DNA of 13,894 bases, taken from positions 1 to 13,894 of IMG/VR virus record IMGVR_UViG_2645728091_000007. One strand, written 5' to 3'. A program made the translations under genes and the position numbers. Positions 1 through 13,894 of the stretch are shown here, in pieces; within the stretch, counting starts at the first letter, position 1, and every line of letters begins with the position of its first letter. The stretch is from a virus (taxonomy: Duplodnaviria > Heunggongvirae > Uroviricota > Caudoviricetes). Below the pieces are notes generated by a model, which did no database searches, was not told the DNA's origin, and saw nothing but the letters and a program-made list of their open reading frames with translations.

Positions 1-1
1 C

Positions 2-1063
2 GGGGAGGAAGGAAACTACCGGATGGAAAGAGTCCCCCTAAAGCAGACTGACAGACATCACAAATCCCCGGGTGGGGATTTGTGTATAAGAGACAGACCA
101 GTAGCAGGGGAAAACATCCGCGATAATGCGCCAAATTTCCATAAATGGCTTGAACATGCTGCAAGAAAAGACCCGCGTAAGATGATGCGTATATGTGCCG
201 CGTTATACATGATTATGGCGAACCGCTACGACTGGCAGATGTTCATTGAGGCCACCGGAGACGGGGGAAGCGGTAAGAGTACATTTACCCATATTGCCAC
301 CCTGCTTGCTGGCAAACAGAACACCGTAAGCGCGGAGATGACATCACTCGATGATGCAGGAGGGCGCGCGCAGGTTGTCGGGAGTCGTCTTATCGTCCTT
401 GCCGATCAGCCGAAATATACGGGGGAAGGCACGGGCATCAAGAAAATCACGGGAGGCGATCCCGTTGAAATTAACCCGAAATATGAGAAGCGATTCACGA
501 CGATAATAAGGGCGGTGGTACTGGCAACCAATAACGACCCGATGATCTTTACCGAACGGGCCGGAGGTGTGTCACGCCGTCGGGTGATTTTCCGGTTCGA
601 CAACATTGTAAGGGAGGACGAAAAAGACAAGGAATTACCGGAAAAGATAGCGGCAGAAATCCCCGTAATTATCCGCCGCTTGCTGGCTAATTTTGCTGAC
701 CCTGAAAAGGCACGGGCTTTATTACTGGAACAGCGTGACGGTGATGAAGCTCTGGCAATAAAGCAGCAAACGGATCCGGTTGTTGAGCTTTGCGCGGCGC
801 TGGAGTTTCTGGAGGAAGCTCGTGGGCTAATGATGGGCGGTGGTGGTGACACCGTGAAGTACACGACCAGAAACAGCCTTTACCGTGTCTATATGGCCTT
901 CATGGCATACACAGGAAAGGGGAAATGTTTGAGCGTGAATGAGTTCGGAAAGGCTATGAGGTCAGCGGCGAAAGTTTACGGATATGAATATATTACGCGA
1001 AAAGTTAAGGGAGTCACGCAGACCAACGCAACGACTACTGATGATTGCGATGCGTTTTTATAA
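2..1063 (+). CDS. Primase-helicase, P4 alpha/D5 family, C-terminal portion (5'-partial; frame is open from the window edge)
   Basis: Walker A motif GDGGSGKST about 80 codons into the ORF, preceded by a D5_N-like segment (NFHKWLEHAARKDPRKMMRICAALYMI) and followed by a C-terminal region typical of P4-family primases. First in-frame ATG is at 23, but the frame is open from position 2. N-terminal primase domain is absent from the window. Confidence 0.7.
   Translation, partial: GEEGNYRMERVPLKQTDRHHKSPGGDLCIRDRPVAGENIRDNAPNFHKWLEHAARKDPRKMMRICAALYMIMANRYDWQMFIEATGDGGSGKSTFTHIATLLAGKQNTVSAEMTSLDDAGGRAQVVGSRLIVLADQPKYTGEGTGIKKITGGDPVEINPKYEKRFTTIIRAVVLATNNDPMIFTERAGGVSRRRVIFRFDNIVREDEKDKELPEKIAAEIPVIIRRLLANFADPEKARALLLEQRDGDEALAIKQQTDPVVELCAALEFLEEARGLMMGGGGDTVKYTTRNSLYRVYMAFMAYTGKGKCLSVNEFGKAMRSAAKVYGYEYITRKVKGVTQTNATTTDDCDAFL
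78..96 (-). mobile_element. Tn5/IS50-like 19-bp end sequence (element body would lie to the left)
   Basis: Reverse complement of 78-96 is CTGTCTCTTATACACAAAT. The first 16 nt equal the Tn5 mosaic end exactly; 17/19 match both the outside end (CTGACTCTTATACACAAGT) and the mosaic end. A 9-bp-stem palindrome CAAATCCCC-gggt-GGGGATTTG containing a SmaI site lies at 61-82. Confidence 0.3.
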
Positions 1064-1077
1064 AAAATGGCAATGGT

Positions 1078-1305
1078 TATCTACCTTGTCTACCTGACTG
1101 AAAGAAAATACTTTTATTTCAATGTATTAATGCAGGTAGATAACTATTTTTCACTGTCTACCTGTTATCTACCTTATCTACCCATTTTTGTAGACAGGTA
1201 AGGAGACGGGTAGAGATGAGGTAGACAGCTATTTGGGGCTGTCTACCTCCCTGAAACCCGCGCCATTACTGGCCTGATAACTAATCAGGTAGACAAGGTA
1301 GACAA
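1078..1305. repeat. Iteron cluster, about 11 copies of GGTAGACA / TGTCTACC in both orientations (putative ori or crr)
   Basis: Copies at about 1078, 1087, 1135, 1155, 1167, 1175, 1190, 1209, 1220, 1240, 1288 and 1297, including a direct tandem GGTAGACAAGGTAGACAAGG at 1288-1307. AT-rich context immediately downstream of the primase gene. Confidence 0.6.
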
Positions 1306-1352
1306 GGTGGTGGTGCACAAAAAACTTTTTAAACGAGGGGGTAAAAATAAAA

Positions 1353-1610
1353 ATGCACACATCAGGAAAACTGAACAAACATATAAAGCCACATTACCGC
1401 GCCCTTGATATGGCTGAACACTGGCTAAGGGTGGCGATTAAGGCAATAGACCGCAACGCCGGGGAAGGATACGCGAAAGCACATCCCGAACTGATAAGCG
1501 CATTCATGACAACGGCGGCTGCAAACTTTGCCACGCTGACCGAACGGGAGATTGCTGAAGCGGAGGAAGTGACAACAATCAATATTAAGTCCGGAGAGCT
1601 GGCAGCATGA
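1353..1610 (+). CDS. Hypothetical small protein (85 aa)
   Basis: ORF with a GAGGGGG Shine-Dalgarno about 12 nt upstream; its stop overlaps the SSB start (ATGA at 1607-1610), suggesting translational coupling. No family recognised. Confidence 0.5.
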   Translation: MHTSGKLNKHIKPHYRALDMAEHWLRVAIKAIDRNAGEGYAKAHPELISAFMTTAAANFATLTEREIAEAEEVTTINIKSGELAA

Positions 1611-2056
1611 CGGCGCAAATATCAGTTTACGGGCGGTTGGTGGACGACCCGCAGACAAAACAGACCAGCAAGGGCACCCCCATGACGCTGGCGCGTATGG
1701 CGGTATCACTGCCCTGCAGTCAGTCGGATGACGGTCTGGCGACGTTGTGGTTATCTGTCCTGGCGTTTGGCAGACAAGCCGACGCGCTGGCAAAGCATCA
1801 CAAAGGCGAACTCCTGAGCGTGGCGGGTAACATGCAGATGAGCCAGTGGACTGGACAGAACGGCGAAACGCGGCAGGGCTGGCAGGTTATCGCAGACAGC
1901 GTAATCAGTGCGCGATCGGTGCGACCGGGCGGCAAAAAAGGCCAACAGGGGCAGGCTACTGACGCACTGAACAGAGCAAAACAACAGGCAGATCAGCAAG
2001 GAAGCCAGCCACCAGAGGGAGATAATGAGCAATGGGGAGATGATATCCCGTTTTAA
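1607..2056 (+). CDS. ssb: Single-stranded DNA-binding protein
   Basis: N-terminal OB-fold-like region (ISVYGRLVDDPQ...), Q/G-rich linker, and C-terminal WGDDIPF matching the acidic tail of E. coli SSB (DFDDDIPF). Confidence 0.8.
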   Translation: MTAQISVYGRLVDDPQTKQTSKGTPMTLARMAVSLPCSQSDDGLATLWLSVLAFGRQADALAKHHKGELLSVAGNMQMSQWTGQNGETRQGWQVIADSVISARSVRPGGKKGQQGQATDALNRAKQQADQQGSQPPEGDNEQWGDDIPF

Positions 2057-2074
2057 ATATTGCCAATAAAAAAA

Positions 2075-2098
2075 GCCGGAAAAAATAAATTTTCCGGC
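2075..2098 (-). terminator. Stem-loop with a 9-bp perfect stem (GCCGGAAAA / TTTTCCGGC); looks like an intrinsic terminator on the minus strand
   Basis: On the minus strand the hairpin is followed by a run of 7 T (complement of the A-run at 2068-2074). On the plus strand no U-run follows. Sits in the SSB-capsid intergenic region. Confidence 0.3.
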
Positions 2099-2272
2099 AT
2101 GCTACATAAATCCCGACCAAAGGGAGTGAAGATATTAACACTAATTGTCCGCACTGAAGTTGTCACCCCAAAACTTTATACAACATTGCACTCGGTTGCA
2201 TGTGTTCGCATGACAAATATCGGTGATAGCATATATCCACAATTATTTTTAATGAATGCAAAGAGGATGCGT

Positions 2273-3313
2273 ATGGTTGATTTATATTCGCCTACTCAGC
2301 TTGTACAGGTAGTTAATGCTGTAGATGTACAAAAACAACTAAATGCGTTGTTTACCAGTTTGTTTTTTACTCGCTCGGTAATGTTTGAATCGCGCGATAT
2401 TATTCTTGATACAATCGACGATCCAAATATCCCAATTGCAGCGTTTTGTTCTCCTATGGTGGGTAGTAAAGTTTCACGTGACGAAGGGTACGAATCAAAA
2501 ACAATTCGTCCAGGCTATATGAAGCCGAAAAGCAGCATTGATCCAAATAAGTTAGCTGTGCGCCCTGCTGGTGTATCACCTGAGCAATACAATTCTTTTG
2601 GGGCGCGTAATATTAAAGTTAAACAGGCGATTGTAAATCAGGCTAAAGCTATTCGTGCACGTATTGAATGGCTTGCCGTTCAGGCAATCACAACGGGGAA
2701 AAATATCATTGAGGGCGATGGTATTGAACGTTATGAGCTGGACTGGAATATTAAACCACAAAATATCATCACTCAGTCTGGCGGTGCTGAGTGGTCAGGT
2801 AAGGATAAAGAAACTTTTGATCCAAATGATGATATTGATAGCTACGCAGAATTTAGTGAGGGCGTCACTAATATCATCATTATGGGCGGTAATGTATGGA
2901 AGAAATACCGTTCATTCAGAGCGATAAAAGAGGCTCTGGATACCCGTCGTGGTTCTAATTCCGAACTGGAAACGGCCCTTAAAGACCTTGGTGATTCGGT
3001 GAGTTTTAAAGGGTATATGGGCGATGTTGCGATTGTTGTATATAGCGGGCGTTATACCGACGAGGACGGAACTGAAAAACATTTCCTTGATCCTGATTTG
3101 ATGGTGCTTGGCAATACGGCTCTTCAGGGGATTGTCGCCTATGGAGGTATTCAGGATCCGGAGCTAATCCGAATGGGGCTGACTAAAGCCGAACTTGCAC
3201 CGAAAAACTATATTGTGCCTGGTGATCCGGCTATTGAATATGTGCAGACACATTCAGCACCACAGCCAATACCGGCCCGCATCAATCGTTTTGTTACCGT
3301 TCGCATTGGCTAA
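2273..3313 (+). CDS. Major capsid protein, lambda gpE family (divergent homolog, 346 aa)
   Basis: Similarity to lambda gpE along the full length (LFF near the N-terminus; QSGG.EWS..DK.T.DP.DDI; LDTRRGSNSELETA; GDVAIVVYSG). Start at 2273 chosen from the AAGAGG Shine-Dalgarno at 2261-2266 and alignment to gpE MSMY; the ORF track's upstream extension to 2060 has no homology. Confidence 0.8.
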   Translation: MVDLYSPTQLVQVVNAVDVQKQLNALFTSLFFTRSVMFESRDIILDTIDDPNIPIAAFCSPMVGSKVSRDEGYESKTIRPGYMKPKSSIDPNKLAVRPAGVSPEQYNSFGARNIKVKQAIVNQAKAIRARIEWLAVQAITTGKNIIEGDGIERYELDWNIKPQNIITQSGGAEWSGKDKETFDPNDDIDSYAEFSEGVTNIIIMGGNVWKKYRSFRAIKEALDTRRGSNSELETALKDLGDSVSFKGYMGDVAIVVYSGRYTDEDGTEKHFLDPDLMVLGNTALQGIVAYGGIQDPELIRMGLTKAELAPKNYIVPGDPAIEYVQTHSAPQPIPARINRFVTVRIG

Positions 3314-3322
3314 GGGGGAGCA

Positions 3323-3664
3323 ATGGCTACTCATTACACTGAACTCATGGCTGGCACTGAAGCACTGGTGACTACGCTGGGGATATTTTCAGCTAATAAA
3401 GGGGTAATTCCTGCATTTACGCCACTGATGCAGGAAGATGCAACAGGTGCACTGGTGGTATGGGATGGTTCGAGCGTAGGTAAAGCGGTTTATGTTTCCG
3501 CTGTACAAATCGACACCGCGAAAAAAACACAGGCTCAGGTCTATAAGACAGGTGTCTTAAATGTTGATGCTCTGAACTGGCCTGAGTCTGTTAAAGAACT
3601 GTCAGTAAAGGTTGCAGCGTTTGTTGGCTCAGGTATTTCTGTTCAGCCGCTGGCTCGTGTGTAA
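3323..3664 (+). CDS. Head decoration protein, lambda gpD family (113 aa)
   Basis: Alignable to lambda gpD (THY; TPLM; VVWDGS vs VAWDGT; YKTG vs YKSG; WPE; AF.G..IS). AAGGGGGAG Shine-Dalgarno directly after the capsid gene stop. Confidence 0.75.
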   Translation: MATHYTELMAGTEALVTTLGIFSANKGVIPAFTPLMQEDATGALVVWDGSSVGKAVYVSAVQIDTAKKTQAQVYKTGVLNVDALNWPESVKELSVKVAAFVGSGISVQPLARV

Positions 3665-3675
3665 AGGGGGATACA

Positions 3676-4059
3676 ATGCAGAATGATTACAATGACCTTA
3701 AGCCAATTGCCGAAATGATGTACCCGAATCCAGCTGTAGAGGAATTAAAAGCTATCGCTGACAAAATGTGTTTAAGCGAGCGCCTTGTTGATATGAATCA
3801 GGTGATGGAAATTACAACCCTGAGTCGTCGTACACTGCTAAACCTTGAGGCTAGTGGAGAGTTCCCGGAGCGTGTGCAGGTTACGGAAGGGCGTAAGGCC
3901 TGGTATTTAAGTGAAGTGATCGACTGGATAAATAATATTCCTCGCGCTTCTGAATATTGCCGCGTACCTGTCCCAAAAAAGCCAGATGCGGCGCTATGCC
4001 TCAAGATTGAGCGTGTACGCCGCAATGCACGGGATGGTCGCTATAAGCTGATTGGTTGA
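3676..4059 (+). CDS. AlpA-family (phage transcriptional regulator / excisionase-like) HTH protein with a ~40-aa N-terminal extension
   Basis: Segment MEITTLSRRTLLNLEASGEFPERVQVTEGRKAWYLSEVIDWINN resembles the AlpA/MerR-like HTH domain. Strong Shine-Dalgarno AAGGGGGAT before the ATG at 3676. Confidence 0.6.
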   Translation: MQNDYNDLKPIAEMMYPNPAVEELKAIADKMCLSERLVDMNQVMEITTLSRRTLLNLEASGEFPERVQVTEGRKAWYLSEVIDWINNIPRASEYCRVPVPKKPDAALCLKIERVRRNARDGRYKLIG

Positions 4060-4079
4060 TGAAATTAGGGCCCGCTCTG

Positions 4080-4149
4080 GCTGGCGGGTCCTTTCCGGTG
4101 ATCCAGAACGTTACGGGGCGGAAGGCGCGCGGGTTTTCGCTATTTATGA
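4080..4149 (+). other. Lambda-type cos site (cosQ/cosN-like) with a variant cohesive-end sequence
   Basis: GGCGGGTCCTTTCCGGTGATCC...GTTACG, then a 12-mer GGGCGGAAGGCG at 4116-4127 (lambda cosN is GGGCGGCGACCT), then CGCGGGTTTTCGCTATTTATGA matching the lambda left end as I recall it. Lies directly upstream of the Nu1-like gene. Confidence 0.6.
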
Positions 4150-4260
4150 GCATTTTAAGGGGACTGGTGGTGGTTTTGTTGTTCGCTGTATCTGTATGAA
4201 TAATAAGAGAAAAATACAATCAATACACCAACCTGAAACAGTAATTAAGTTGTGGTATCA

Positions 4261-4803
4261 ATGAAATTACACCTGATGAACAAAAAAAACATGGCAAAAA
4301 GTTGCCGTGTAAGCGCCACTGCGTTCGATAAGTGGGGAGTGATTCCCGTCGAGCGTAAGGGCCGTGAGGCGTTCTATGATGTTGCCAGTGTAATAGATAA
4401 TCGGGTTAACAATGCAATCAGCCAGATTACAAACGAAACGGGCGATATTGATGACGATGAACTTTTACGCGTCAGGATCAGATTACTGACAGCACAGGCA
4501 GAGGCGCAGGAGCTTAAAAACGAGCGCGAACGCGGCGACGTTATTGATACAGAGTTTTGTATGTATGTTCTTTCCAAACTGGCGAGTCAGATTTCATCTA
4601 TCATGGACAGCCTGCCGCTTACCATGCAAAGGCGCTTCCCACAGATGACTCCGGCTATGCTGGATGGACTTAAAAAGGAAGTGGCTAAAGCCTGTAATGC
4701 CAGTGCCGGCGTTGCTGACAACCTCCCACAGATACTGGCTGATTATCTGATGGAAAGTACAGGAAACGTACCGGATAAGTTGCAGCTGAATAAGGATAAG
4801 TAA
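4261..4803 (+). CDS. Terminase small subunit, lambda Nu1-like
   Basis: Similarity to lambda Nu1 in the middle and C-terminal parts (LTAQAEAQELKNERERGDVIDTEFCMYVLSKLASQISSIMDSLPLTMQRRFPQ vs lambda LTRAQADAQELKNARDSAEVVETAFCTFVLSRIAGEIASILDGLPLSVQRRFPE). N-terminal HTH region is divergent. Start is ambiguous: ATG at 4261, 4276 (best alignment to Nu1 MEVNKK) or GTG at 4252. Confidence 0.8.
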   Translation: MKLHLMNKKNMAKSCRVSATAFDKWGVIPVERKGREAFYDVASVIDNRVNNAISQITNETGDIDDDELLRVRIRLLTAQAEAQELKNERERGDVIDTEFCMYVLSKLASQISSIMDSLPLTMQRRFPQMTPAMLDGLKKEVAKACNASAGVADNLPQILADYLMESTGNVPDKLQLNKDK

Positions 4804-4814
4804 CGTAGTACGCT

Positions 4815-5090
4815 ATGACTGAATCCGAACTACTGAAAGTAATCTGCCATGCTGGTGGAGTCAGCCACCAGCATGACGAACAGACCACGCAGCCGGGCAG
4901 TGTCACCGCTGAAAATTACGCTCGTGTGGTTGCTGAGGTTATGTGGCGTGACGGTATAGAACTGAACGGACAGGATTGCTTAGTCATCCGCACCAAAGTG
5001 CTGGCTATACTGGCAGCTAGGCGGAGGCAGGGACAACGCCAGAACGTTGCATCGTACCAGTGGAAGAAGCCTGACAGACTGCGGCGATAA
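4815..5090 (+). CDS. Hypothetical protein (91 aa) in the position where a large terminase gene would be expected
   Basis: ORF only; no similarity to the lambda gpA N-terminus; weak RBS. Confidence 0.35.
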   Translation: MTESELLKVICHAGGVSHQHDEQTTQPGSVTAENYARVVAEVMWRDGIELNGQDCLVIRTKVLAILAARRRQGQRQNVASYQWKKPDRLRR

Positions 5091-5492
5091 CTCTTTGATT
5101 TTCTCGACGGCCCCAAAATGGGCCTTACCATAGCCAGCTAATAAATGAGCAAGCCTCAAAAGTGAGGTTTGTGGCCGTTTGGCCTATTCATATGCTAACT
5201 CGTTGATATTCCTGACGACGCAAATTTACGCCTTGTGGCTGGTAGTCGAATTGCAAATTTGCAACTCAACTATGAAACTACAGGTAGTTTGGGTAGTAAA
5301 AGCAACACACTGATTTTGGGGCTTCTTCGCGATACCTAATATTATGGTATCGGTGGAAGAGATATCGTTTCTCATAGGTTAGCACCGAGGGCGGAGTTCC
5401 GCCCTCATCGAAAAATTGCTTACGAGTCGTCAAAATAAATTAATCGACTGAGTATAATGATTAACTAATTGCTCGTGTTACTTCATTATACG

Positions 5493-6254
5493 TTATTTCC
5501 CATCTTTAAGGTTTAACCAAGTGTTAATTAAAAAAAGAGCCATTGAACCTGATAAATTTACTGCAAGTTCGGCATGCCTTGGGGATGGCTTAATTGATGA
5601 GCTGTTCGTTCCATGTGCATCACCGAGTTTATTACGAAGAGTACCTAACCCATTTACAACTGCAGAACAACCGCCGAGAATTTGTTTGAAGATATTTTCA
5701 GTATGTTGGTCGGCAGATAGGTTAAGTTCTTTTGAAAGAGTTTTATAAAGCTCTGACATTTCAATATTTTTATTATTATACTGAATGCCCATATCATCAA
5801 GAATGTGTTTGCAAACTGTTTCAAGAAGTGTTCTTGCGGAGGTTATCGCACCATCCGGATCTGTATGGCGCCGTTCAAGTGCTTTTATCCAAACGGCGTG
5901 GACTCCATCCTCGTTAAACTTTCTTAATACATCAGATATGTCTTCATCCGCTGGAGCTTTATTTTTCCCTTCTAGATAGTCCAGCATCGGCTGAAATGCC
6001 TTATAAATCAAATCTCTCCGGGGGGCATACTTTTCAGTCTTTTTTATAAATCCCCAAAATTCTTTTAGTGAGCGATTAGTTCTCACAAACTCTGGTAATA
6101 GCTGATGTAAAGGAGGATTTTGTAAGAAATATGTTCTTAGAAGCAAATAATCATTATTAGCTTCATCCTGGGCTCCTGTAGCTCTTGCAATTAGTATGTT
6201 TTGAAGCGCTACTGCGCGCTCTAGGTCATTTTGAAGGGTATCTATAATATTCAT
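5493..6254 (-). CDS. Abortive-infection-like protein with a C-terminal HEPN-type Rx6H motif (Abi_C-like)
   Basis: 253-aa ORF on the minus strand. C-terminal GTLRNKLGDAHG fits the HEPN Rx4-6H motif and my recollection of Abi_C-family proteins. AT-rich gene flanked by noncoding DNA, consistent with acquired cargo. Confidence 0.5.
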   Translation of the reverse strand: MNIIDTLQNDLERAVALQNILIARATGAQDEANNDYLLLRTYFLQNPPLHQLLPEFVRTNRSLKEFWGFIKKTEKYAPRRDLIYKAFQPMLDYLEGKNKAPADEDISDVLRKFNEDGVHAVWIKALERRHTDPDGAITSARTLLETVCKHILDDMGIQYNNKNIEMSELYKTLSKELNLSADQHTENIFKQILGGCSAVVNGLGTLRNKLGDAHGTNSSSIKPSPRHAELAVNLSGSMALFLINTWLNLKDGK

Positions 6255-6314
6255 AACAAATCTTTATTCACTTCATTTGTGGGTTGATAATTGAATGGTT
6301 TGTACATTGATTTC

Positions 6315-6337
6315 TGTGTATTGCAGTGTGTATTGCA
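6315..6337. repeat. Tandem direct repeat TGTGTATTGCA(G) x2 in the putative promoter region of the Abi-like gene
   Basis: TGTGTATTGCAG followed by TGTGTATTGCAA at 6315-6337, upstream of the minus-strand start at 6254. Confidence 0.3.
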
Positions 6338-6427
6338 ACATAGCCATTCAGGTAGAGATTATGCTCTATTTTTCCTCTTATATCATTCACATACTTACAC
6401 CATTGACTCATGTAACCCAAGCATGAG

Positions 6428-7204
6428 GTGAATCCGCAGATGACCCTGCGTCGCCTGCCGGATGAAGATCCGCAGAATCTGGCGGACCCGGCTTACCGCC
6501 GCCGTCGCATCATCCTGCAGAACATGCGTGACGAGGAGCTGGCCATTGCCCAGGTCGAAGAGATGCAGGCCGTTTCTGCCGTGCTTAAGGGCAAATACAC
6601 CATGACCGGTGAAGCCTTCGATCCGGTTGAGGTGGATATGGGCCGCAGTGCGGCGAATAACATCACGCAGTCCGGCGGCACGGAGTGGAGTAAGCGTGAT
6701 AAGTCCACGTATGACCCGACCGACGATATCGAAGCCTACGCGCTGAACGCCAGCGGTGTGGTGAATATCATCGTGTTTGATCCGAAAGGCTGGGCGCTGT
6801 TCCGTTCCTTCAAAGCCGTCAGGGAGAAGCTGGATACCCGTCGCGGCTCTCATTCCGAACTGGAGACAGCGGTAAAAGACCTGGGCAAAGCGGTGTCTTA
6901 TAAGGGAATGTATGGCGATGTGGCCATCGTCGTGTATTCCGGACAGTACGTGGAAAATGGTGTCAAAAAGAACTTCCTGCCGGACAACACGATGGTGCTG
7001 GGCAACACTCAGGCACGCGGTCTGCGCACCTATGGCTGCATTCAGGATGCGGACGCACAGCGCGAAGGCATTAACGCCTCTGCCCGTTACCCGAAAAACT
7101 GGGTGACCACCGGCGATCCGGCGCGTGAGTTCACCATGATTCAGTCAGCACCGCTGATGCTGCTGGCTGACCCTGATGCGTTCGTGTCCGTACAACTGGC
7201 GTAA
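6428..7204 (+). pseudogene. E: Major capsid protein gpE, 5'-truncated (C-terminal ~260 codons, lambda-like)
   Basis: Translation matches lambda gpE from about residue 82 (NPQMTLRRLPDEDPQNLADPAYRRRRI...) to the C-terminus (...FVSVQLA). In-frame upstream codons KHE are preserved but a TAA occurs at 6413-6415 and homology ends near 6410. The N-terminal ~80 codons are missing. Confidence 0.8.
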
Positions 7205-7206
7205 TC

Positions 7207-7224
7207 ATGGCCCTTCGGGGCCAT
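7207..7224 (+). other. Stem-loop ATGGCCC-TTCG-GGGCCAT after the E stop, followed by a T-rich tract
   Basis: Perfect 7-bp stem with a TTCG tetraloop; matches the E-FI intergenic hairpin of lambda as I recall it. Confidence 0.5.
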
Positions 7225-7245
7225 TTTCTCTCTGTGGAGGAGTCC

Positions 7246-7641
7246 ATGACGAAAGATGAACTGATTGCCCGTCTTCAGGTGCTGGGTGAGCAACTGAACC
7301 GTGATGTCAGCCTGACGGGGACGAAAGAAGAACTGGCGCTCCGTGTGGCAGAGCTGGAAGAGGAGCTTGATGACACGGATGACGCTGCCGGTCAGGACAC
7401 GTCTGTCAGCCCGGAAAATGCGCTGACCGGGCATGAAAATGAGGTGGTGTCAGCGCAGCCGGGTACCGTGACTGATACGGCTGATCTGGTCACGGTTGTG
7501 GCACTGGTGACGCTGCATACTGATGCACTTCACGCCACGCGGGATGAGGCTGTGGCATTTGTGCTGCCGGGAACGGCGTTCCGTGTTTCTGCCAGTGTGG
7601 CAGCCGAAATGACAGAACATGGCCTGGCCAGAATGCAATAA
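7246..7641 (+). CDS. FI: DNA packaging / head assembly protein FI
   Basis: MTKDELIARLQ...GLARMQ matches lambda gpFI. GGAGGA Shine-Dalgarno at 7236-7241. The ORF-track start at 7207 is an upstream in-frame extension. Confidence 0.85.
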   Translation: MTKDELIARLQVLGEQLNRDVSLTGTKEELALRVAELEEELDDTDDAAGQDTSVSPENALTGHENEVVSAQPGTVTDTADLVTVVALVTLHTDALHATRDEAVAFVLPGTAFRVSASVAAEMTEHGLARMQ

Positions 7642-7652
7642 CGGGAGGCGCT

Positions 7653-8006
7653 GTGGCTGATTTCGATAACCTGTTCGATGCTGCCATTGCCCGCGCCGAT
7701 GAAACGATACGCGGGTACATGGGAACGTCAGCCACCATGACATCCGGTGAGCAGTCCGGCGCAGTAATACGTGGTGTTTTTGATGACCCTGAAAATATCA
7801 GCTATGCCGGACAGGGCGTGCGTGTTGAAGGCTCCAGCCCGTCCCTGTTTGTCCGGACTGATGATGTGCGGCAGCTGCGGCGCGGCGACACGCTGACCAT
7901 CGGTGAGGAAAACTTCTGGATAGACCGGATTTCACCGGATGATGGCGGAAGCTGTCATCTCTGGCTTGGGCGTGGCGTACCGCCTGCCGTTAACCGTCGC
8001 CGCTGA
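7653..8006 (+). CDS. FII: Head-tail joining protein FII
   Basis: GTG start with GGGAGG Shine-Dalgarno; MADFDNLFDAAIARADETIRGYMG... matches lambda gpFII (117 aa). Confidence 0.9.
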   Translation: MADFDNLFDAAIARADETIRGYMGTSATMTSGEQSGAVIRGVFDDPENISYAGQGVRVEGSSPSLFVRTDDVRQLRRGDTLTIGEENFWIDRISPDDGGSCHLWLGRGVPPAVNRRR

Positions 8007-8017
8007 AAGGGGGATGT

Positions 8018-8596
8018 ATGGCCATAAAAGGTCTTGAGCAGGCCGTTGAAAACCTCAGCCGTATCAGCAAAACGGCAGTGCCCGGTGCCGCCGCAATGGC
8101 CATTAACCGCGTGGCCACAACCGCAATAAAGCAGTCGGCGTCACAGGTTGCCCGTGAGACAAAGGTACGCCGGAAACTGGTAAAGGAAAGGGCCAGGCTG
8201 AAAAGGGCCACGGTCAAAAATCCGCAGGCCAGAATCAAGGTTAACCGGGGGGATTTGCCCGTAATCAAGCTGGGGAATGCGCGGGTTGTCCTGTCCCGCC
8301 GCAGGCGTCGTAAAAAGGGGCAGCGTTCATCCCTGAAAGGTGGCGGCAGCGTGCTTGTGGTGGGAAACCGTCGTATTCCCGGCGCGTTTATTCAGCAACT
8401 GAAAAATGGCCGGTGGCATGTCATGCAGCGTGTGGCCGGGAAAAACCGTTACCCCATTGATGTGGTGAAAATCCCGATGGCGGTGCCGCTGACCACGGCG
8501 TTTAAACAGAATATTGAACAGATACGGCGTGAACGTTTGCCGAAAGAACTGGAATACGCCCTGAAACAACAACTGAGGATTGCGATAAAGCGATGA
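8018..8596 (+). CDS. Z: Tail completion protein Z
   Basis: 192 aa, MAIKGLEQAVENLSRISKTAVPGAAAMAINRVA... matches lambda gpZ. AAGGGGGAT Shine-Dalgarno. Confidence 0.9.
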   Translation: MAIKGLEQAVENLSRISKTAVPGAAAMAINRVATTAIKQSASQVARETKVRRKLVKERARLKRATVKNPQARIKVNRGDLPVIKLGNARVVLSRRRRRKKGQRSSLKGGGSVLVVGNRRIPGAFIQQLKNGRWHVMQRVAGKNRYPIDVVKIPMAVPLTTAFKQNIEQIRRERLPKELEYALKQQLRIAIKR

Positions 8597-8988
8597 AACA
8601 TACTGAACTCCGTGCAGCCGTACTGGATGCACTGGAGAAGCATGACACCGGGGCGACGCTTTTTGATGGTCGCCCCGCTGTTTTTGATGAGGCGGATTTT
8701 CCGGCAGTTGCCGTTTATCTCACCGGCGCTGAATACACGGGCGAAGAGCTGGACAGCGATACCTGGCAGGCGGAGCTGCATATCGAAGTTTTCCTGCCTG
8801 CTCAGGTGCCGGATTCAGAGCTGGATTCGTGGATGGAGTCCCGGATTTATCCGGTGATGAGCGATATCCCGGCACTGTCAGATTTGATCACCAGTATGGT
8901 GGCCAGCGGCTATGACTACCGGCGCGACGATGATGCGGGCCTGTGGAGTTCAGCCGATCTGACTTATGTCATTACCTATGAAATGTGA
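8593..8988 (+). CDS. U: Tail terminator protein U
   Basis: 131 aa, [22 protein letters not shown]... matches lambda gpU. ATGA overlap with the Z stop. Confidence 0.9.
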
Positions 8989-8995
8989 GGACGCT

Positions 8996-9736
8996 ATGCC
9001 TGTACCAAATCCTGTAATGCCGGTGAAAGGTGCCGGGACCACCCTGTGGGTTTATAAGGGGAGCGGTGACCCTTATGCGAACCCGCTTTCAGACGTTGAC
9101 TGGTCGCGTCTGGCAAAAGTTAAAGACCTGACGCCCGGCGAACTGACCGCTGAGTCCTATGACGACAGCTATCTCGATGATAAAGATGCAGACTGGACTG
9201 CGACCGGGCAGGGGCAGAAATCTGCCGGAGATACCAGCTTCACGCTGGCGTGGATGCCCGGAGAGCAGGGGCAGCAGGCGCTGCTGGCGTGGTTTAATGA
9301 AGGTGATACCCGTGCCTATAAAATCCGCTTCCCGAACGGCACGGTCGATGTGTTCCGTGGCTGGGTCAGCAGTATCGGTAAGGCGGTGACGGCGAAGGAA
9401 GTGATCACCCGCACGGTGAAAGTCACCAATGTGGGACGTCCGTCGATGGCAGAAGATCGCAGCACGGTAACAGCGGCCACCGGCATGACGGTAACGCCAG
9501 CCAGTGCTTCCGTAGTGAAAGGGCAGAGCACTACGCTGACCGTGGCATTCCAGCCGGAGGGCGTAACCGACAAGAGCTTTCGTGCGGTGTCTGCGGATAA
9601 AACAAAAGCCACCGTGTCGGTCAGTGGTATGACCATCACCGTGAACGGCGTTGCTGCAGGCAAGGTCAACATTCCGGTTGTATCCGGTAATGGTGAGTTT
9701 GCTGCGGTTGCAGAAATTACCGTCACCGCCAGTTAA
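8996..9736 (+). CDS. V: Major tail protein V
   Basis: [36 protein letters not shown]... matches lambda gpV (246 aa), including the C-terminal Ig-like region. GAGGA Shine-Dalgarno; the ORF-track start at 8966 is an upstream extension overlapping U. Confidence 0.9.
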
Positions 9737-9751
9737 TCCGGAGAGTCAGCG

Positions 9752-10174
9752 ATGTTCCTGAAAACCGAATCATTTGAACATAACGGTGTGACCGTCACGC
9801 TTTCTGAACTGTCAGCCCTGCAGCGTATTGAGCATCTTGCCTGGTTGAAAGAGCAGGAAAAAAAGGCTGAATCCAGTGGCAACCTGCAGGTGTCTGTAGA
9901 GGATCTTATCAGAGGCGGGGCGTTTCTGGTGGCGATGTCTCTGTGGCATAACCATCCGCAGAAGACAAAGCTGCCGTCCATGAATGAAGCCATTACGCAG
10001 ATTGAGCAGGAAGTGCTTACCACCTGGCCCACGGAGGCAATTGCTCAGGCTGAAAACGTGGTGTTACGTCTGTCCGGAATGTCTGAGTTTGTGGTGAATA
10101 ATGCCCCTGAACAGGCAGAGGACGCCGGGCCTGCAGAGCCTGTTTCTGCGGGAAAGTGTTCGACGGTGAGCTGA
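9752..10174 (+). CDS. G: Tail assembly chaperone G
   Basis: 140 aa, MFLKTESFEHNGVTVTLSELSALQRIEHLA... ending ...PVSAGKCSTVS as in lambda gpG. Middle region differs from lambda at several residues. Confidence 0.9.
   Translation: MFLKTESFEHNGVTVTLSELSALQRIEHLAWLKEQEKKAESSGNLQVSVEDLIRGGAFLVAMSLWHNHPQKTKLPSMNEAITQIEQEVLTTWPTEAIAQAENVVLRLSGMSEFVVNNAPEQAEDAGPAEPVSAGKCSTVS
10150..10156 (+). promoter_or_regulatory. Programmed -1 ribosomal frameshift slippery heptamer G GGA AAG (G into T frame)
   Basis: Heptamer GGGAAAG lies in the G zero frame as G-GGA-AAG near the 3' end of G. The T frame (10156-10590) is -1 relative to G and has no start codon of its own with an RBS. Confidence 0.85.
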
Positions 10175-10590
10175 GTTTTGCCCTGAAACTGGCGCGCGAG
10201 ATGGGGCGACCCGACTGGCGCGCCATGCTTGCCGGGATGTCATCCACGGAGTATGCCGACTGGCACCGCTTTTACAGTACCCATTATTTTCATGATGTTC
10301 TGCTGGATATGCACTTTTCCGGGCTGACGTACACCGTGCTCAGCCTGTTTTTCAGCGATCCGGATATGCATCCGCTGGATTTCAGTCTGCTGAACCGGCG
10401 TGAGGCTGACGAAGAGCCTGAAGATGATGTGCTGATGCAGAAAGCGGCAGGGCTTGCCGGAGGTGTCCGCTTTGGCCCGGACGGGAATGAAGTTATCCCC
10501 GCTTCCCCGGATGTGGCGGACATGACGGAGGATGACGTAATGCTGATGACAGTATCAGAAGGGATCGCAGGAGGAGTCCGGTATGGCTGA
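10156..10590 (+). CDS. T: Tail assembly protein T segment, expressed as a G-T fusion by -1 frameshifting (fusion would span 9752-10590)
   Basis: Translation FDGELSFALKLAREMGRPDWRAMLAGMSSTEYADWHRFYSTHYFHD... matches lambda gpT; frame is -1 relative to G. Confidence 0.85.
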   Translation: MFDGELSFALKLAREMGRPDWRAMLAGMSSTEYADWHRFYSTHYFHDVLLDMHFSGLTYTVLSLFFSDPDMHPLDFSLLNRREADEEPEDDVLMQKAAGLAGGVRFGPDGNEVIPASPDVADMTEDDVMLMTVSEGIAGGVRYG

Positions 10591-13144
10591 ACCGGTAGGC
10601 GATCTGGTCGTTGATTTGAGTCTGGATGCGGCCAGATTTGACGAGCAGATGGCCAGAGTCAGGCGTCATTTTTCCGGTACGGAAAGTGATGCGAAAAAAA
10701 CAGCGGCAGTCGTTGAACAGTCAATGAACCGGCAGGCGCTGGCTGCACAGAAAGCGGGGATTTCCGTCGGGCAGTATAAAGCCGCCATGCGTATGCTGCC
10801 TGCACAGTTCACCGACGTGGCCACGCAGCTTGCAGGCGGGCAAAGTCCGTGGCTGATCCTGCTGCAACAGGGGGGTCAGGTTAAGGACTCCTTCGGCGGG
10901 ATGATCCCCATGTTCAGGGGGCTTGCCGGTGCGATCACCCTGCCGATGGTGGGGGCCACCTCGCTGGCGGTGGCGACCGGTGCGCTGGCGTATGCCTGGT
11001 ATCAGGGCAACTCAACCCTGTCCGATTTCAACAAAACGCTGGTCCTTTCCGGCAATCAGGCGGGACTGACGGCAGATCGTATGCTGGTCCTGTCCAGAGC
11101 CGGGCAGGCGGCAGGGCTGACGTTTAACCAGACCAGCGAGTCACTCAGCGCACTGGTTAAGGCGGGGGTAAGCGGTGAGGCTCAGATTGCGTCCATCAGC
11201 CAGAGTGTGGCGCGTTTCTCCTCTGCATCCGGCGTGGAGGTGGACAAGGTCGCTGAAGCCTTCGGGAAGCTGACCACAGACCCGACGTCGGGGCTGACGG
11301 CGATGGCACGCCAGTTCCATAACGTGACGGCGGAGCAGATTGCGTATGTTGCTCAGTTGCAGCGTTCCGGCGATGAAGCCGGGGCATTGCAGGCGGCGAA
11401 CGAGGCCGCAACGAAAGGGTTTGATGACCAGACCCGCCGCCTGAAAGAGAACATGGGCACGCTGGAGACCTGGGCAGACAGGACTGCGCGGGCATTCAAA
11501 TCCATGTGGGATGCGGTGCTGGATATTGGTCGTCCTGATACCGCGCAGGAGATGCTGATTAAGGCAGAGGCTGCGTTTAAGAAAGCAGACGACATCTGGA
11601 ATCTGCGCAAGGATGATTATTTTGTTAACGATGAAGCGCGGGCGCGTTACTGGGATGATCGTGAAAAGGCCCGTCTTGCGCTTGAAGCCGCCCGAAAGAA
11701 GGCTGAGCAGCAGACTCAACAGGACAAAAATGCGCAGCAGCAGAGCGATACCGAAGCGTCACGGCTGAAATATACCGAAGAGGCGCAGAAGGCTTACGAA
11801 CGGCTGCAGACGCCGCTGGAGAAATATACCGCCCGTCAGGAAGAACTGAACAAGGCACTGAAAGACGGGAAAATCCTGCAGGCGGATTACAACACGCTGA
11901 TGGCGGCGGCGAAAAAGGATTATGAAGCGACGCTGAAAAAGCCGAAACAGTCCGGCGTGAAGGTGTCTGCGGGCGATCGTCAGGAAGACAGTGCTCATGC
12001 TGCCCTGCTGACGCTTCAGGCAGAACTCCGGACGCTGGAGAAGCATGCCGGAGCAAATGAGAAAATCAGCCAGCAGCGCCGGGATTTGTGGAAGGCGGAG
12101 AGTCAGTTCGCGGTACTGGAGGAGGCGGCGCAACGTCGCCAGCTGTCTGCACAGGAGAAATCCCTGCTGGCGCATAAAGATGAGACGCTGGAGTACAAAC
12201 GCCAGCTGGCTGCACTTGGCGACAAGGTTACGTATCAGGAGCGCCTGAACGCGCTGGCGCAGCAGGCGGATAAATTCGCACAGCAGCAACGGGCAAAACG
12301 GGCCGCCATTGATGCGAAAAGCCGGGGGCTGACTGACCGGCAGGCAGAACGGGAAGCCACGGAACAGCGCCTGAAGGAACAGTATGGCGATAATCCGCTG
12401 GCGCTGAATAACGTCATGTCAGAGCAGAAAAAGACCTGGGCGGCTGAAGACCAGCTTCGCGGGAACTGGATGGCAGGCCTGAAGTCCGGCTGGAGTGAGT
12501 GGGAAGAGAGCGCCACGGACAGTATGTCGCAGGTAAAAAGTGCTGCCACGCAGACCTTTGATGGTATTGCACAGAATATGGCGGCGATGCTGACCGGCAG
12601 TGAGCAGAACTGGCGCAGCTTCACCCGTTCCGTGCTGTCCATGATGACAGAAATTCTGCTTAAGCAGGCAATGGTGGGGATTGTCGGGAGTATCGGCAGC
12701 GCCATTGGCGGGGCTGTTGGTGGCGGCGCATCCGCGTCAGGCGGTACAGCCATTCAGGCCGCTGCGGCGAAATTCCATTTTGCAACCGGAGGATTTACGG
12801 GAACCGGCGGCAAATATGAGCCAGCGGGGATTGTTCACCGTGGTGAGTTTGTCTTCACGAAGGAGGCAACCAGCCGGATTGGCGTGGGGAATCTTTACCG
12901 GCTGATGCGCGGCTATGCCACCGGCGGTTATGTCGGTACACCGGGCAGCATGGCAGACAGCCGGTCGCAGGCGTCCGGGACGTTTGAGCAGAATAACCAT
13001 GTGGTGATTAACAACGACGGCACGAACGGGCAGATAGGTCCGGCTGCTCTGAAGGCGGTGTATGACATGGCCCGCAAGGGTGCCCGTGATGAAATTCAGA
13101 CACAGATGCGTGATGGTGGCCTGTTCTCCGGAGGTGGACGATGA
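10583..13144 (+). CDS. H: Tail tape measure protein H
   Basis: 853 aa, MAEPVGDLVVDLSLDAARFDEQMARVRRHF... matches lambda gpH in length and sequence. AGGAGGA Shine-Dalgarno. Confidence 0.95.
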   Translation: MAEPVGDLVVDLSLDAARFDEQMARVRRHFSGTESDAKKTAAVVEQSMNRQALAAQKAGISVGQYKAAMRMLPAQFTDVATQLAGGQSPWLILLQQGGQVKDSFGGMIPMFRGLAGAITLPMVGATSLAVATGALAYAWYQGNSTLSDFNKTLVLSGNQAGLTADRMLVLSRAGQAAGLTFNQTSESLSALVKAGVSGEAQIASISQSVARFSSASGVEVDKVAEAFGKLTTDPTSGLTAMARQFHNVTAEQIAYVAQLQRSGDEAGALQAANEAATKGFDDQTRRLKENMGTLETWADRTARAFKSMWDAVLDIGRPDTAQEMLIKAEAAFKKADDIWNLRKDDYFVNDEARARYWDDREKARLALEAARKKAEQQTQQDKNAQQQSDTEASRLKYTEEAQKAYERLQTPLEKYTARQEELNKALKDGKILQADYNTLMAAAKKDYEATLKKPKQSGVKVSAGDRQEDSAHAALLTLQAELRTLEKHAGANEKISQQRRDLWKAESQFAVLEEAAQRRQLSAQEKSLLAHKDETLEYKRQLAALGDKVTYQERLNALAQQADKFAQQQRAKRAAIDAKSRGLTDRQAEREATEQRLKEQYGDNPLALNNVMSEQKKTWAAEDQLRGNWMAGLKSGWSEWEESATDSMSQVKSAATQTFDGIAQNMAAMLTGSEQNWRSFTRSVLSMMTEILLKQAMVGIVGSIGSAIGGAVGGGASASGGTAIQAAAAKFHFATGGFTGTGGKYEPAGIVHRGEFVFTKEATSRIGVGNLYRLMRGYATGGYVGTPGSMADSRSQASGTFEQNNHVVINNDGTNGQIGPAALKAVYDMARKGARDEIQTQMRDGGLFSGGGR

Positions 13145-13470
13145 AGACCTTCCGCTGGAAAGTGAAACCCGGTATGGATGTGGCTTCGGTCCCTTCTGTA
13201 AGAAAGGTGCGCTTTGGTGATGGCTATTCTCAGCGAGCGCCTGCCGGGCTGAATGCCAACCTGAAAACGTACAGCGTGACGCTTTCTGTCCCCCGTGAGG
13301 AGGCCACGGTACTGGAGTCGTTTCTGGAAGAGCACGGGGGCTGGAAAGCCTTTCTGTGGACGCCGCCTTATGAGTGGCGGCAGATAAAGGTGACCTGCGC
13401 AAAATGGTCGTCGCGGGTCAGTATGTTGCGTGTTGAGTTCAGCGCAGAGTTTGAACAGGTGGTGAACTGA
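13141..13470 (+). CDS. M: Tail tip assembly protein M
   Basis: 109 aa, MKTFRWKVKPGMDVASVPSVRKVRFGDGYSQRAPAGLNANLK... matches lambda gpM. ATGA overlap with the H stop. Confidence 0.9.
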   Translation: MKTFRWKVKPGMDVASVPSVRKVRFGDGYSQRAPAGLNANLKTYSVTLSVPREEATVLESFLEEHGGWKAFLWTPPYEWRQIKVTCAKWSSRVSMLRVEFSAEFEQVVN

Positions 13471-13894
13471 TGCAGGATATCCGGCAGGAAACACTGAATG
13501 AATGCACCCGTGCGGAGCAGTCTGCCAGCGTGGTGCTCTGGGAAATCGACCTGACAGAGGTCGGTGGAGAACGTTATTTTTTCTGTAATGAGCAGAACGA
13601 AAAAGGTGAGCCGGTCACCTGGCAGGGGCGACAGTATCAGCCGTATCCCATTCAGGGGAGCGGTTTTGAACTGAATGGCAAAGGCACCAGTACGCGCCCC
13701 ACGCTGACGGTTTCTAACCTGTACGGTATGGTCACCGGGATGGCGGAAGATCTGCAGAGTCTGGTCGGCGGAACGGTGGTCCGGCGTAAGGTTTACGCCC
13801 GTTTTCTGGATGCGGTGAACTTCGTCAACGGAAACAGTTACGCCGATCCGGAGCAGGAGGTGATCAGCCGCTGGCGCATTGAGCAGTGCAGCGA
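13470..13894 (+). CDS. L: Tail tip protein L (3'-partial; runs off the window end)
   Basis: ATG at 13470 overlaps the M stop by 1 nt. Translation MQDIRQETLNECTRAEQSASVVLWEIDLTEVGGERYFFCNEQNEKGEP... matches the lambda gpL N-terminus. Not in the ORF track because no stop is reached. Confidence 0.9.
   Translation, partial: MQDIRQETLNECTRAEQSASVVLWEIDLTEVGGERYFFCNEQNEKGEPVTWQGRQYQPYPIQGSGFELNGKGTSTRPTLTVSNLYGMVTGMAEDLQSLVGGTVVRRKVYARFLDAVNFVNGNSYADPEQEVISRWRIEQCS

Follow-up and report, generated by a model that had tools for sequence, protein, structure and literature searches.

A conserved non-coding block at the right end of phage-inducible chromosomal islands in Escherichia coli and its possible role as a structured 3′ untranslated region

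Introduction

A 13,894-nucleotide (nt) stretch of tailed-phage DNA (IMG/VR record IMGVR_UViG_2645728091_000007, positions 1–13,894; the whole stretch is termed the window) has a region at positions 5100–5492 that raises a simple question: what is the role of DNA that contains several palindromes and hairpins, and no sizeable open reading frame (ORF), between two genes? The genes are orf91 and a gene for an AbiJ-like abortive-infection (Abi) protein and, as previously annotated, they converge on the region. An initial annotation made from the sequence proposed that the region may hold terminators, a regulator binding site, an RNA antitoxin for the Abi-like protein or the attachment (att) site of the element.

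The region consists of two parts joined at positions 5406/5407: a conserved non-coding block that belongs to phage-inducible chromosomal islands (PICIs), and the flank of an Abi cassette. The block is tentatively read as a structured 3′ untranslated region (3′-UTR) plus a termination module of the rightward operon of a phage satellite, acting as RNA. That the surrounding element is a phage satellite within a prophage was missed in the initial annotation. The window covers the right-hand portion of a helper-embedded PICI (HE-PICI) in the capsid gene E of a lambda-like prophage. HE-PICIs are a kind of phage satellite reported in 2023 by Tommasini, Mageeney and Williams (PMC10111431).

Occurrence of the block in PICIs

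Positions 5091–5492 were used as the query in a sensitive search of 5,426 complete E. coli genomes. Full-length, near-identical matches are found in 41 genomes. About 670 further genomes match at positions 5131–5406 only, with 74%–80% identity, and in all the block at 5131–5406 is matched in 714 genomes (~13%). The homology to all relatives ends exactly at position 5406, after CCGCCCTC. Related loci are designated L001, L002, etc. below.

In all contexts inspected the block closes the right side of a PICI, between attR and a 93-aa orf91 homologue (orf93) that precedes it. Upstream sequence was sufficient for 89 copies of the block's core, and in 87 of these a co-oriented orf91/93 homologue ends <1.2 kb upstream. 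orf93 is missing in the carriers L006 and L062.

The same block is found behind three unrelated capsid/packaging modules. L002 (next to thiM) and L005 (near ydgV/mdtJ) have a full HK97-type set and resemble capsid-forming PICIs (cf-PICIs). L003 (next to clpS) and L006 (at a tRNA-Ile gene) have a lambda E/D/Nu1-type set. L004, which is inside a prophage terminase gene, has a single protease-capsid fusion. L004 is from strain O157:H7 ECP19-198; from position 9369 onward, the satellite is seen to be embedded in a prophage large-terminase (gpA-type) gene, and its host prophage has an IS1203 in a protease/capsid fusion gene. PICIs of Salmonella and Citrobacter carry near-identical blocks.

Phage records and true plasmids show no match to the block. 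The matches in the plasmid search are one excised PICI and misfiled chromosomes. The former, L123 (NZ_CP148328.1, 10,790 bp), was deposited as a plasmid and is a complete excised circular PICI with int, AlpA, an Icd-like gene, primase, a protease-capsid fusion, orf93 and the block. In the circular record, attP and int are 0.3–0.5 kb downstream of the block. A scan of GTDB species representatives with the core gave chance matches and two tiny contigs of metagenome-assembled genomes only, and therefore no extra diversity for covariation.

Organization of the block

All five palindromes and hairpins of the initial annotation are present at their positions when the sequence is read directly (Table 1). 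The block begins with units that consist of a box and a hairpin. In each unit, the last codons and the stop codon of orf91/93 lie in a box, TAAC-NN-GTTGAT(A/T)TT, and a stem-loop of 5–7 bp follows ~10 nt on. The window has two units, a and b, which share 72% identity. Three units are present in EcCICFT073, the model PICI of E. coli, and one to three in other elements. The box is constant, yet at least nine unrelated covarying stems occur across PICIs including EcCICFT073, e.g. GGCCC/GGGCC, AACGC/GCGTT, AGTGC/GCACT, CCTCA/TGAGG, TTCGCC/GGCGAA and TCCCCC/GGGGGA. The unit b hairpin covaries in relatives (ACGC/GCGT, GTGC/GCAC, GCCCA/TGGGT), and the hairpin at 5154–5167 is kept in L003, L005 and L007 with stem changes (CCTCA to GCGCA). 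A free stem sequence behind a constant box fits selection for a folded single strand and not for a sequence-specific duplex site.

The box also matches the consensus of integration host factor (IHF). The exact consensus WATCAANNNNTTR has just two matches in the 13.9-kb window (0.53 expected per window), at 5088–5100 and 5196–5208, i.e. in the two boxes. The match at 5088–5100 is on the − strand; the two boxes are co-oriented and 108 bp apart. The boxes are conserved in relatives and in EcCICFT073 and are candidate IHF sites. A regulator binding site, as initially proposed, is possible, and the candidates for it are these two matches and several zero-spacer palindromes.

A lambda nut site, in which boxA precedes a 5-bp hairpin with a GNRA-like, A-rich pentaloop bound by N near the start of an operon, was considered for the units and rejected. 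CTCTTT, which is similar to the boxA consensus CGCTCTTTA, is in unit a alone, and the conserved part of the box is TTGATATT. In addition, stems and loops differ within one element, and the units sit at the 3′ end of the operon.

The core, ~115 nt in length (window positions 5248–5352), runs in relatives from GAGTTGCAGATCTGCAACTC to GGGTATCGG. Its borders are sharp, as seen in L006, L033 and L135. The first palindrome of relatives is a perfect 20 bp, GAGTTGCAGATCTGCAACTC; in the window lineage its centre is altered symmetrically, G to A and C to T (GATC to AATT). Relatives have four 9-bp repeats at 9-bp spacing, one copy more than the window. The equivalent of positions 5300–5329 in relatives is a hairpin (GAGTAA..CCCA..TGGG..TTACTC), and 4 of its 10 pairs are broken in the window. 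The hairpin at 5330–5352 shows compensatory variants in relatives, TGATACC/GGTATCA and GATCCCC/GGGGATC. Beyond the core, helix 7 (5358–5372) is paired in 100% of the alignment cells, and an A-U pair has changed to G-U in the window lineage.

At the 3′ end of the block in relatives, the stem of the GC hairpin is 11 bp long and TACTTATTGT comes directly after it; on the + strand this hairpin is scored as an intrinsic terminator (L003). A second T-tailed hairpin follows it, with two sequences according to lineage (L132, L133, L004). The GC hairpin of the window is without the outer stem and the U-rich tail, and a terminator scan of window positions 5091–5492 found no intrinsic terminator on either strand. 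The terminators that had been proposed are thus supported in part: relatives have terminator-like hairpins, but none scored in this part of the window.

The borders and copy number of the core show further features. In most relatives (L003, L006, L007, L017, L135) the core is immediately preceded by a Chi site, GCTGGTGG. It is at positions 9104–9111 of L003; the equivalent window positions, 5238–5245, read GCTGGTAG, and the L002 type has ACTGGTGG. The core is doubled in L014 (at 4577 and 5011), L033, L054 and L086, with the copies ~434 bp apart, and the first copy stops after the CGATACCC/GGGTATCG hairpin.

Folding, pairing and constraint

On the + strand, positions 5091–5420 fold with −111 kcal/mol, compared with −86 ± 5.5 kcal/mol for dinucleotide shuffles (z-score −4.6). 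The − strand has a z-score of −6.3, and 0 of 100 shuffles are as stable. The consensus core folds as four hairpins, with z-scores of −7.6 (+) and −7.3 (−).

Pairing was analyzed in an alignment of 31 distinct copies. The proposed partners are paired in 94.7% of the cells, versus 32%–45% when partners are slid, and 4 pairs display double changes. The core identity among relatives is 91%–100%, and that of the third codon positions of the adjacent orf93 is 67%–87%. Between the window and its relatives, the core is 83%–85% identical and the third positions of the adjacent gene are 55%–65% identical. There is no codon signal in the block, i.e. no 3-periodicity among the variable columns. As pairing is kept, a coding signal is lacking and the core changes more slowly than third codon positions, purifying selection on a non-coding sequence is indicated, with a recent spread by recombination as a serious alternative.

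The region was also searched for genes of known type. No ORF of 60 aa or more is wholly inside it, as noted initially; those present are 44, 49 and 51 aa, and a 71-aa ORF antisense to orf91 extends into the region only as far as 5131. The recurrent 49-aa ORF on the − strand (5226–5375) was rejected as a small protein: it has no Shine-Dalgarno sequence, its stops are variable and its ATG is lost in L006, L017 and L033. The covariance-model scan that the initial annotation suggested gave no Rfam match to the region. The best hits are eukaryotic or archaeal families with E-values of 0.2–10, far below the gathering scores, and no Rfam family was found in four complete satellites. The region contains no tRNA or tmRNA. 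A conserved promoter was not found on either strand of the block, nor was a convincing sigma-70 promoter. A TGG-N8-TTGCA arrangement was considered as a sigma-54 promoter and rejected; in the L002 type the two motifs are misspaced by one position.

The AbiJ-like cassette and its junction with the block

Positions 5407–5492 are the 3′ flank of the AbiJ-like cassette, which is inserted at the 3′ edge of the block. From 5407 to ~6283 the GC content is low (0.35–0.40; 0.37 for 5407–5492). This segment is the cassette; it separates the conserved block from the attP arm and is found in 41 of the 5,426 complete E. coli genomes. The sister HE-PICI L135 (strain GN06489), at the same E site, is without it. 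The sequence of 5407–5492 is not conserved in Abi-less satellites, and its folding shows no significant excess over shuffles (z-score −1.1). Immune systems have been reported at either the 5′ or the 3′ end of PICIs (PMC11364771). In the window lineage, the cassette has taken the place of the U-rich terminator tail.

Possible function of the block

Action at the level of RNA, by termination or stabilization of the transcript, is tentatively taken as the most likely explanation. The transcript that ends with orf91 would pass through one to three box and stem-loop units, and then through the ~115-nt core folded as four hairpins. It would end at the GC-rich hairpin, which in relatives has a U-rich tail, with the second terminator as a backup. 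Transcription would thus be halted before attR or, in the excised circle, before attP and int. The 3′ end of the message would be shielded from exonucleases, and processing into a stable RNA is possible. An RNA-level role is favoured because of the constant place and orientation of the block after the last gene, the covarying unit hairpins, the terminator-like ends and the lack of a promoter or ORF of its own.

Several observations weigh against a structured 3′-UTR and terminator. Relatives have two zero-spacer palindromes, a perfect 20 bp and a near-perfect 26 bp, whose centres change symmetrically, and such symmetric palindromes are more usual where dimeric proteins bind DNA. The boxes are exact matches to a consensus for IHF binding to DNA. 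A plain terminator needs no 115 nt of near-invariant sequence. L135 retains the first palindrome alone and EcCICFT073 has units without a core, so that some satellites, at least, can do without the core. High identity together with sharp borders could reflect recent recombinational spread. The strand test gives 50 G.U cells versus 40 A.C cells, too even a split to assign a strand, and the RNAalifold covariation energy is only −0.72, the copies being too alike. In the window copy no hairpin is followed by a U-tract, 8 of 51 pairs have been lost with no compensatory change and the core fold has a z-score of only −2.6. This copy is a diverged and partly degraded version of the block.

The palindromes and boxes could instead be read on duplex DNA, an explanation that is the main rival but is considered rather doubtful. 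DNA bending by IHF at the two boxes would be combined with occupation of the palindromes and the 9-bp repeats by a dimeric protein of the satellite, the helper or the host. In cargo-free satellites the block is immediately beyond the P arm of attP, and such a nucleoprotein platform could therefore serve as an accessory site in the control of excision and integration, or could enhance replication or packaging. It would explain why the sole two exact IHF-consensus matches of the window are here, co-oriented and in a conserved box, and why the 20-bp and 26-bp palindromes of relatives have palindromic centres (GATC and AATT), the first of which has changed symmetrically. The four 9-bp repeats at 9-bp spacing and the equal folding of both strands, which is predicted for DNA palindromes, agree with it as well, and in cargo-free HE-PICIs the end of the block (L004) or its remnant (L135) is ~135 bp or ~55 bp, respectively, before the arm motif and att core. 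However, the distance to the att core ranges from ~135 to ~1,000 bp, here with the Abi cassette in between, unlike the fixed geometry of an intasome, and the doubled TGTATTGC motif is the only attP feature in the published HE-PICI analysis (PMC10111431). The unit hairpins vary in sequence yet stay paired, which a protein that reads the duplex would forbid. Nor do the 9-bp repeats track the changes in the iterons of the replication origin (ori). They are constant while the iterons differ, and therefore are not Rep iterons, and Rep/primase is not the binder; among other proteins, no candidate binder is common to all carriers except backbone proteins.

The preferred reading, a structured 3′-UTR, must also be weighed against an origin by recombination, in which exchange of late modules and cargo at the junction after orf93 leaves tandem and truncated copies of the gene end and hairpin units, and a recently spread core has little function of its own. 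The units indeed repeat the last codons of orf93 (..CGGCGGTAAC..) in arrays of one to three that differ between elements, one block is found behind three unrelated late modules, and the sharply bordered core is doubled in four loci (L014, L033, L054, L086), cut in L135 and absent from EcCICFT073, with Chi adjoining it in most relatives. This explanation is unlikely, however: even the deeply diverged window core has kept 83%–85% identity to the consensus versus 55%–65% for the synonymous sites next door, pairing is maintained by compensatory changes, the consensus core folds 7.6 standard deviations better than shuffles, and the block keeps its orientation and position throughout the ~13% of complete E. 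coli genomes that have it. Release of the core as a trans-acting small RNA (sRNA), derived from the 3′-UTR or transcribed from its own promoter and targeting helper-phage or host genes, is less probable again. The predicted linkers, like the stems, are strongly conserved in primary sequence, the core is directly upstream of terminator hairpins in relatives, and the box, which is beside a hairpin, contains a putative RNase E-like AUAUU. But neither strand has a conserved promoter, complementarity to helper prophages and to other parts of the satellite does not exceed 12–13 nt, which is the chance level, Rfam gives no match, and the terminator tail that Hfq-dependent sRNAs need is lost in the window copy. 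The att site and the Abi RNA antitoxin of the initial annotation, for which location close to one end of the element and beside the Abi gene is the sole argument, are now very improbable. The doubled arm motif at 6314–6337 and the gene E junction at ~6409–6417 place the att site to the right of the region, at a distance of ~0.9 kb. Positions 5088–5406, which are conserved, are present in hundreds of Abi-less elements, and the sole Abi-specific part of the region, 5407–5492, folds no better than shuffles.

Other candidates were rejected. A type III antitoxin RNA needs a tandem array of short direct repeats that is upstream of the toxin gene and transcribed together with it; the region is without tandem repeats and is 3′ of the Abi gene, convergent with it. 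The GGGCGG of the GC hairpin recalls lambda cosN, but no cosN match with ≤3 mismatches is in the region, and the cos-like site is elsewhere (Table 1). An ori or P4-crr-like site was rejected on the grounds that the iterons at 1072–1308 vary between satellites and the repeats of the block are constant. An oriT or plasmid-borne site has no true plasmid match in its favour. A helper-derived sequence or decoy lacks a match in phage records and an above-chance complementarity to helper prophages or to the satellite.

The surrounding satellite

Table 1. Positions of features in the window
Feature	Positions	Strand	Remarks
Replication origin, iterons TGTCTACCT/AGGTAGACA	1072–1308		3′ of the primase gene
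cos-like site	~4085–4160		Just upstream of Nu1-like terS, as in lambda
orf91 (phrog_1561)	4815–5090	+	Gene that the conserved block nearly always follows
Conserved block	5088–5406		Non-coding
Unit a	5088–5126	+	orf91 stop codon, box TAACTCTTTGATT (5088–5100), hairpin 5109–5124
Direct repeat, 39 nt	5088–5126 / 5196–5234		Repeat search
Unit a hairpin GGCCCCAAAATGGGCC (GGCCC-CAAAAT-GGGCC)	5109–5124	+	
Hairpin CCTCA-AAAG-TGAGG, then TTTGTGG	5154–5167	+	
Hairpin GGCC-GTTT-GGCC	5173–5184	+	Second of two small hairpins in 5149–5184
Unit b	5196–5234	+	Box TAACTCGTTGATA (5196–5208), degenerate hairpin CGCAAATTTACG (5219–5230)
Palindrome GAATTGCAAATTTGCAACTC	5248–5267		Start of conserved core; TTGCAAATTTGCAA extended, one mismatch
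Palindrome TTGCAAATTTGCAA	5251–5264		14 bp, perfect; direct reading
9-bp repeats SGTAGTTTS, head to head, GAAACTAC / GTAGTTTG GGTAGTAA	5273–5299		Three in the window
Inverted repeat AAACTAC/GTAGTTT	5275–5290		Repeat search
Most conserved core stretch AAGCAACACACTGATTTTGGGGCTTCTTCG	5300–5329		
Inverted repeat CGATACC-TAATATTAT-GGTATCG	5330–5336 / 5346–5352 (arms)		Hairpin or palindrome; closes the 115-nt core
Small hairpin AGAGA-TATCG-TTTCT	5358–5372		Helix 7
GC hairpin GAGGGCGG-AGTT-CCGCCCTC	5387–5406	+	Last conserved element of the block
Cassette 3′ flank	5407–5492	−	AT-rich, with GTATAATGA/TCATTATAC and AGTCG..CGACT
Inverted repeats GTATAATGA/TCATTATAC	5452–5491		Repeat search; inside the cassette flank
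AbiJ-like abortive-infection gene (Abi_C domain)	5493–6254	−	Cargo at the 3′ end of the satellite
Doubled attP arm motif, TGTGTATTGCAG x2	6314–6337	+	Only tandem repeat in 4800–6500
attR crossover (..ccAAGCAtg..; AAGCA)	~6409–6417		Satellite joins the 3′ part of lambda-like gene E

Pfam searches show that the genes upstream of the region encode the C-terminal part of a D5/DUF5906 primase, a single-strand binding protein (SSB), a lambda-E-type capsid protein, a lambda-D-type decoration protein, an AlpA-type regulator and a Nu1-type small terminase. To the right of the satellite, positions 6428–7204 are the 3′ part of a lambda-like gene E, and FI, FII, Z, U, V, G, T and H follow. E. coli KMi006 has the same DNA at 99.8% identity, as an 11-kb element inside gene E of a complete lambda-like prophage. 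The order in KMi006 is int, a helix-turn-helix (HTH) gene, ..., primase, SSB, capsid, decoration, HTH, terS, orf91 and Abi, and the 5′ part of E is immediately left of the satellite int. The sister copy L001 has the 5′ segment of E at 10108–10353 and int at 10516–11751, both outside the window. The attL of L001 is GCCGAAGCAC and the attR of the window is ACCCAAGCAT. The diagnostic doubled motif of HE-PICIs, tgTGTATTGCantgTGTATTGCa, is 81 bp upstream of the attP centre (PMC10111431).

The cos-like site has, in its flanks, matches to lambda cosQ and to the first part of cosB. Its 12-nt cosN, however, reads GGGCGGAAGGCG in the window instead of the canonical GGGCGGCGACCT, and GGGCGTCAGGCG in L001. 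The canonical cosN is kept by the helper prophage and by L003, L006 and EcCICFT073, in these three at the equivalent place. The cos-like site of the window thus appears either to be decaying or to have a changed cleavage site. From the altered cosN and the degraded core, the window lineage may be under relaxed selection.

The replication origin has ~14 iterons in two inverted sets flanking AT-rich DNA. Related PICIs with the same backbone have CTGTTCACC iterons in their place, which we take to be the P4 type I iteron. With different iterons on the same backbone, initiator specificity has evidently switched. An iteron origin 3′ of the primase gene is the organization known for Gram-negative PICIs (PMC6092414).

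orf91 was considered as an Rpp protein; it has no PDB match, and its AlphaFold2 model is poor (pLDDT 56). Within orf91, on the − strand, positions 4846–4877 form a 13-bp hairpin with a T-rich tail. This hairpin is the only terminator-like match in a scan of 4700–6600, and it holds Chi both ways, at 4851 (+) and 4865 (−). The 417-aa ORF at 2060–3313 (TTG start) is probably over-extended: the RefSeq homologue of this E-type capsid gene is 346 aa, and the Pfam match in the ORF begins at residue 83.

Comparison with known systems

PICIs and HE-PICIs occur commonly in E. coli and mobilize genes for defence and virulence. Should the block control transcription across attP or assemble a DNA-protein complex, it would bear on the timing of excision and int expression and on cargo slotting. 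If it is a terminator array only, the finding is an ordinary one, and its value is in the correct annotation of att, cos, ori and the cargo junction. The consensus block in the ~670 other E. coli genomes is a better experimental subject than the degraded, Abi-truncated copy of the window.

The element as a whole is of a known kind, the HE-PICI, and agrees with published descriptions in its att motif, the type of its ori, the position of cos and the slot for cargo at the 3′ end. With the prototype, Eco567.11capE (PMC10111431), it shares the target gene E of a lambda-like prophage. With HE-PICIs in general it shares the order int-AlpA ... primase-SSB-capsid E/D homologues, co-orientation with the helper late operon and the doubled TGTGTATTGCA x2 ~81 bp before the crossover. 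It differs from 11capE by the presence of a Nu1-like terS, an altered cosN and the AbiJ-like cargo; 11capE is described as having no terS and a 258-bp cos segment in common with its helper (PMC10111431). An orf93-linked block is not described in the HE-PICI paper, which gives the doubled motif only (PMC10111431).

EcCICFT073 also has an orf91/93 homologue as its last gene, followed by three units of the type "TAACNNGTTGATATT + variable hairpin", then integrase arm-type repeats and attR. It differs in that the 115-nt core is absent. The cis sites defined there by experiment, cos1 and cos2, are on either side of rppA, upstream of orf93, and are distinct from the units (Fillol-Salom 2018 and 2019; PMC6092414, PMC6739421).

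The block resembles intrinsic terminators and structured 3′-UTRs in being a stable hairpin array right after the last gene which, in relatives, ends in a GC hairpin and a U-rich tail; it differs in that its 115-nt near-invariant core far exceeds what termination needs. RIP and BIME-1 elements have IHF sites beside palindromes, as the block has IHF-consensus boxes. The block has no sequence similarity to REP, however, and the window copy has no U-tract. A likeness to the P arm of a lambda-type attP, the side far from int with its IHF, Xis and Fis sites, is seen in the location on the attR side, opposite int, in the IHF-consensus sites and, in cargo-free HE-PICIs, in the adjoining arm-type motif. 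However, the block is 135 to ~1,000 bp from the core site with variable spacing, and it is common to PICIs with unrelated targets (thiM, clpS, tRNA-Ile, prophage genes A and E).

The AbiJ-like gene, between the last conserved sequence and attR, has a position similar to that of defence hotspots in satellites (P4, PMC9122126; PICI ends, PMC11364771). Most copies of the block at the loci examined are nevertheless without downstream cargo, and the block is therefore not simply a hotspot flank.

The PICI papers examined (those that define ori and cos) and Rfam contain no description of the block, and a full-text literature search with strings of the core sequence gave no match. It is possible, though rather doubtful, that the core and units together are an undescribed functional non-coding element specific to enterobacterial PICIs, a structured RNA or a protein-binding DNA platform more constrained than the neighbouring gene. 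Such an element would, for example, control whether transcription of the late operon continues through attP to int once the satellite is excised as a circle, or assemble an IHF complex. att, ori and cos are the described cis sites of PICIs; the block, at their right end, is a fourth non-coding module that is conserved.

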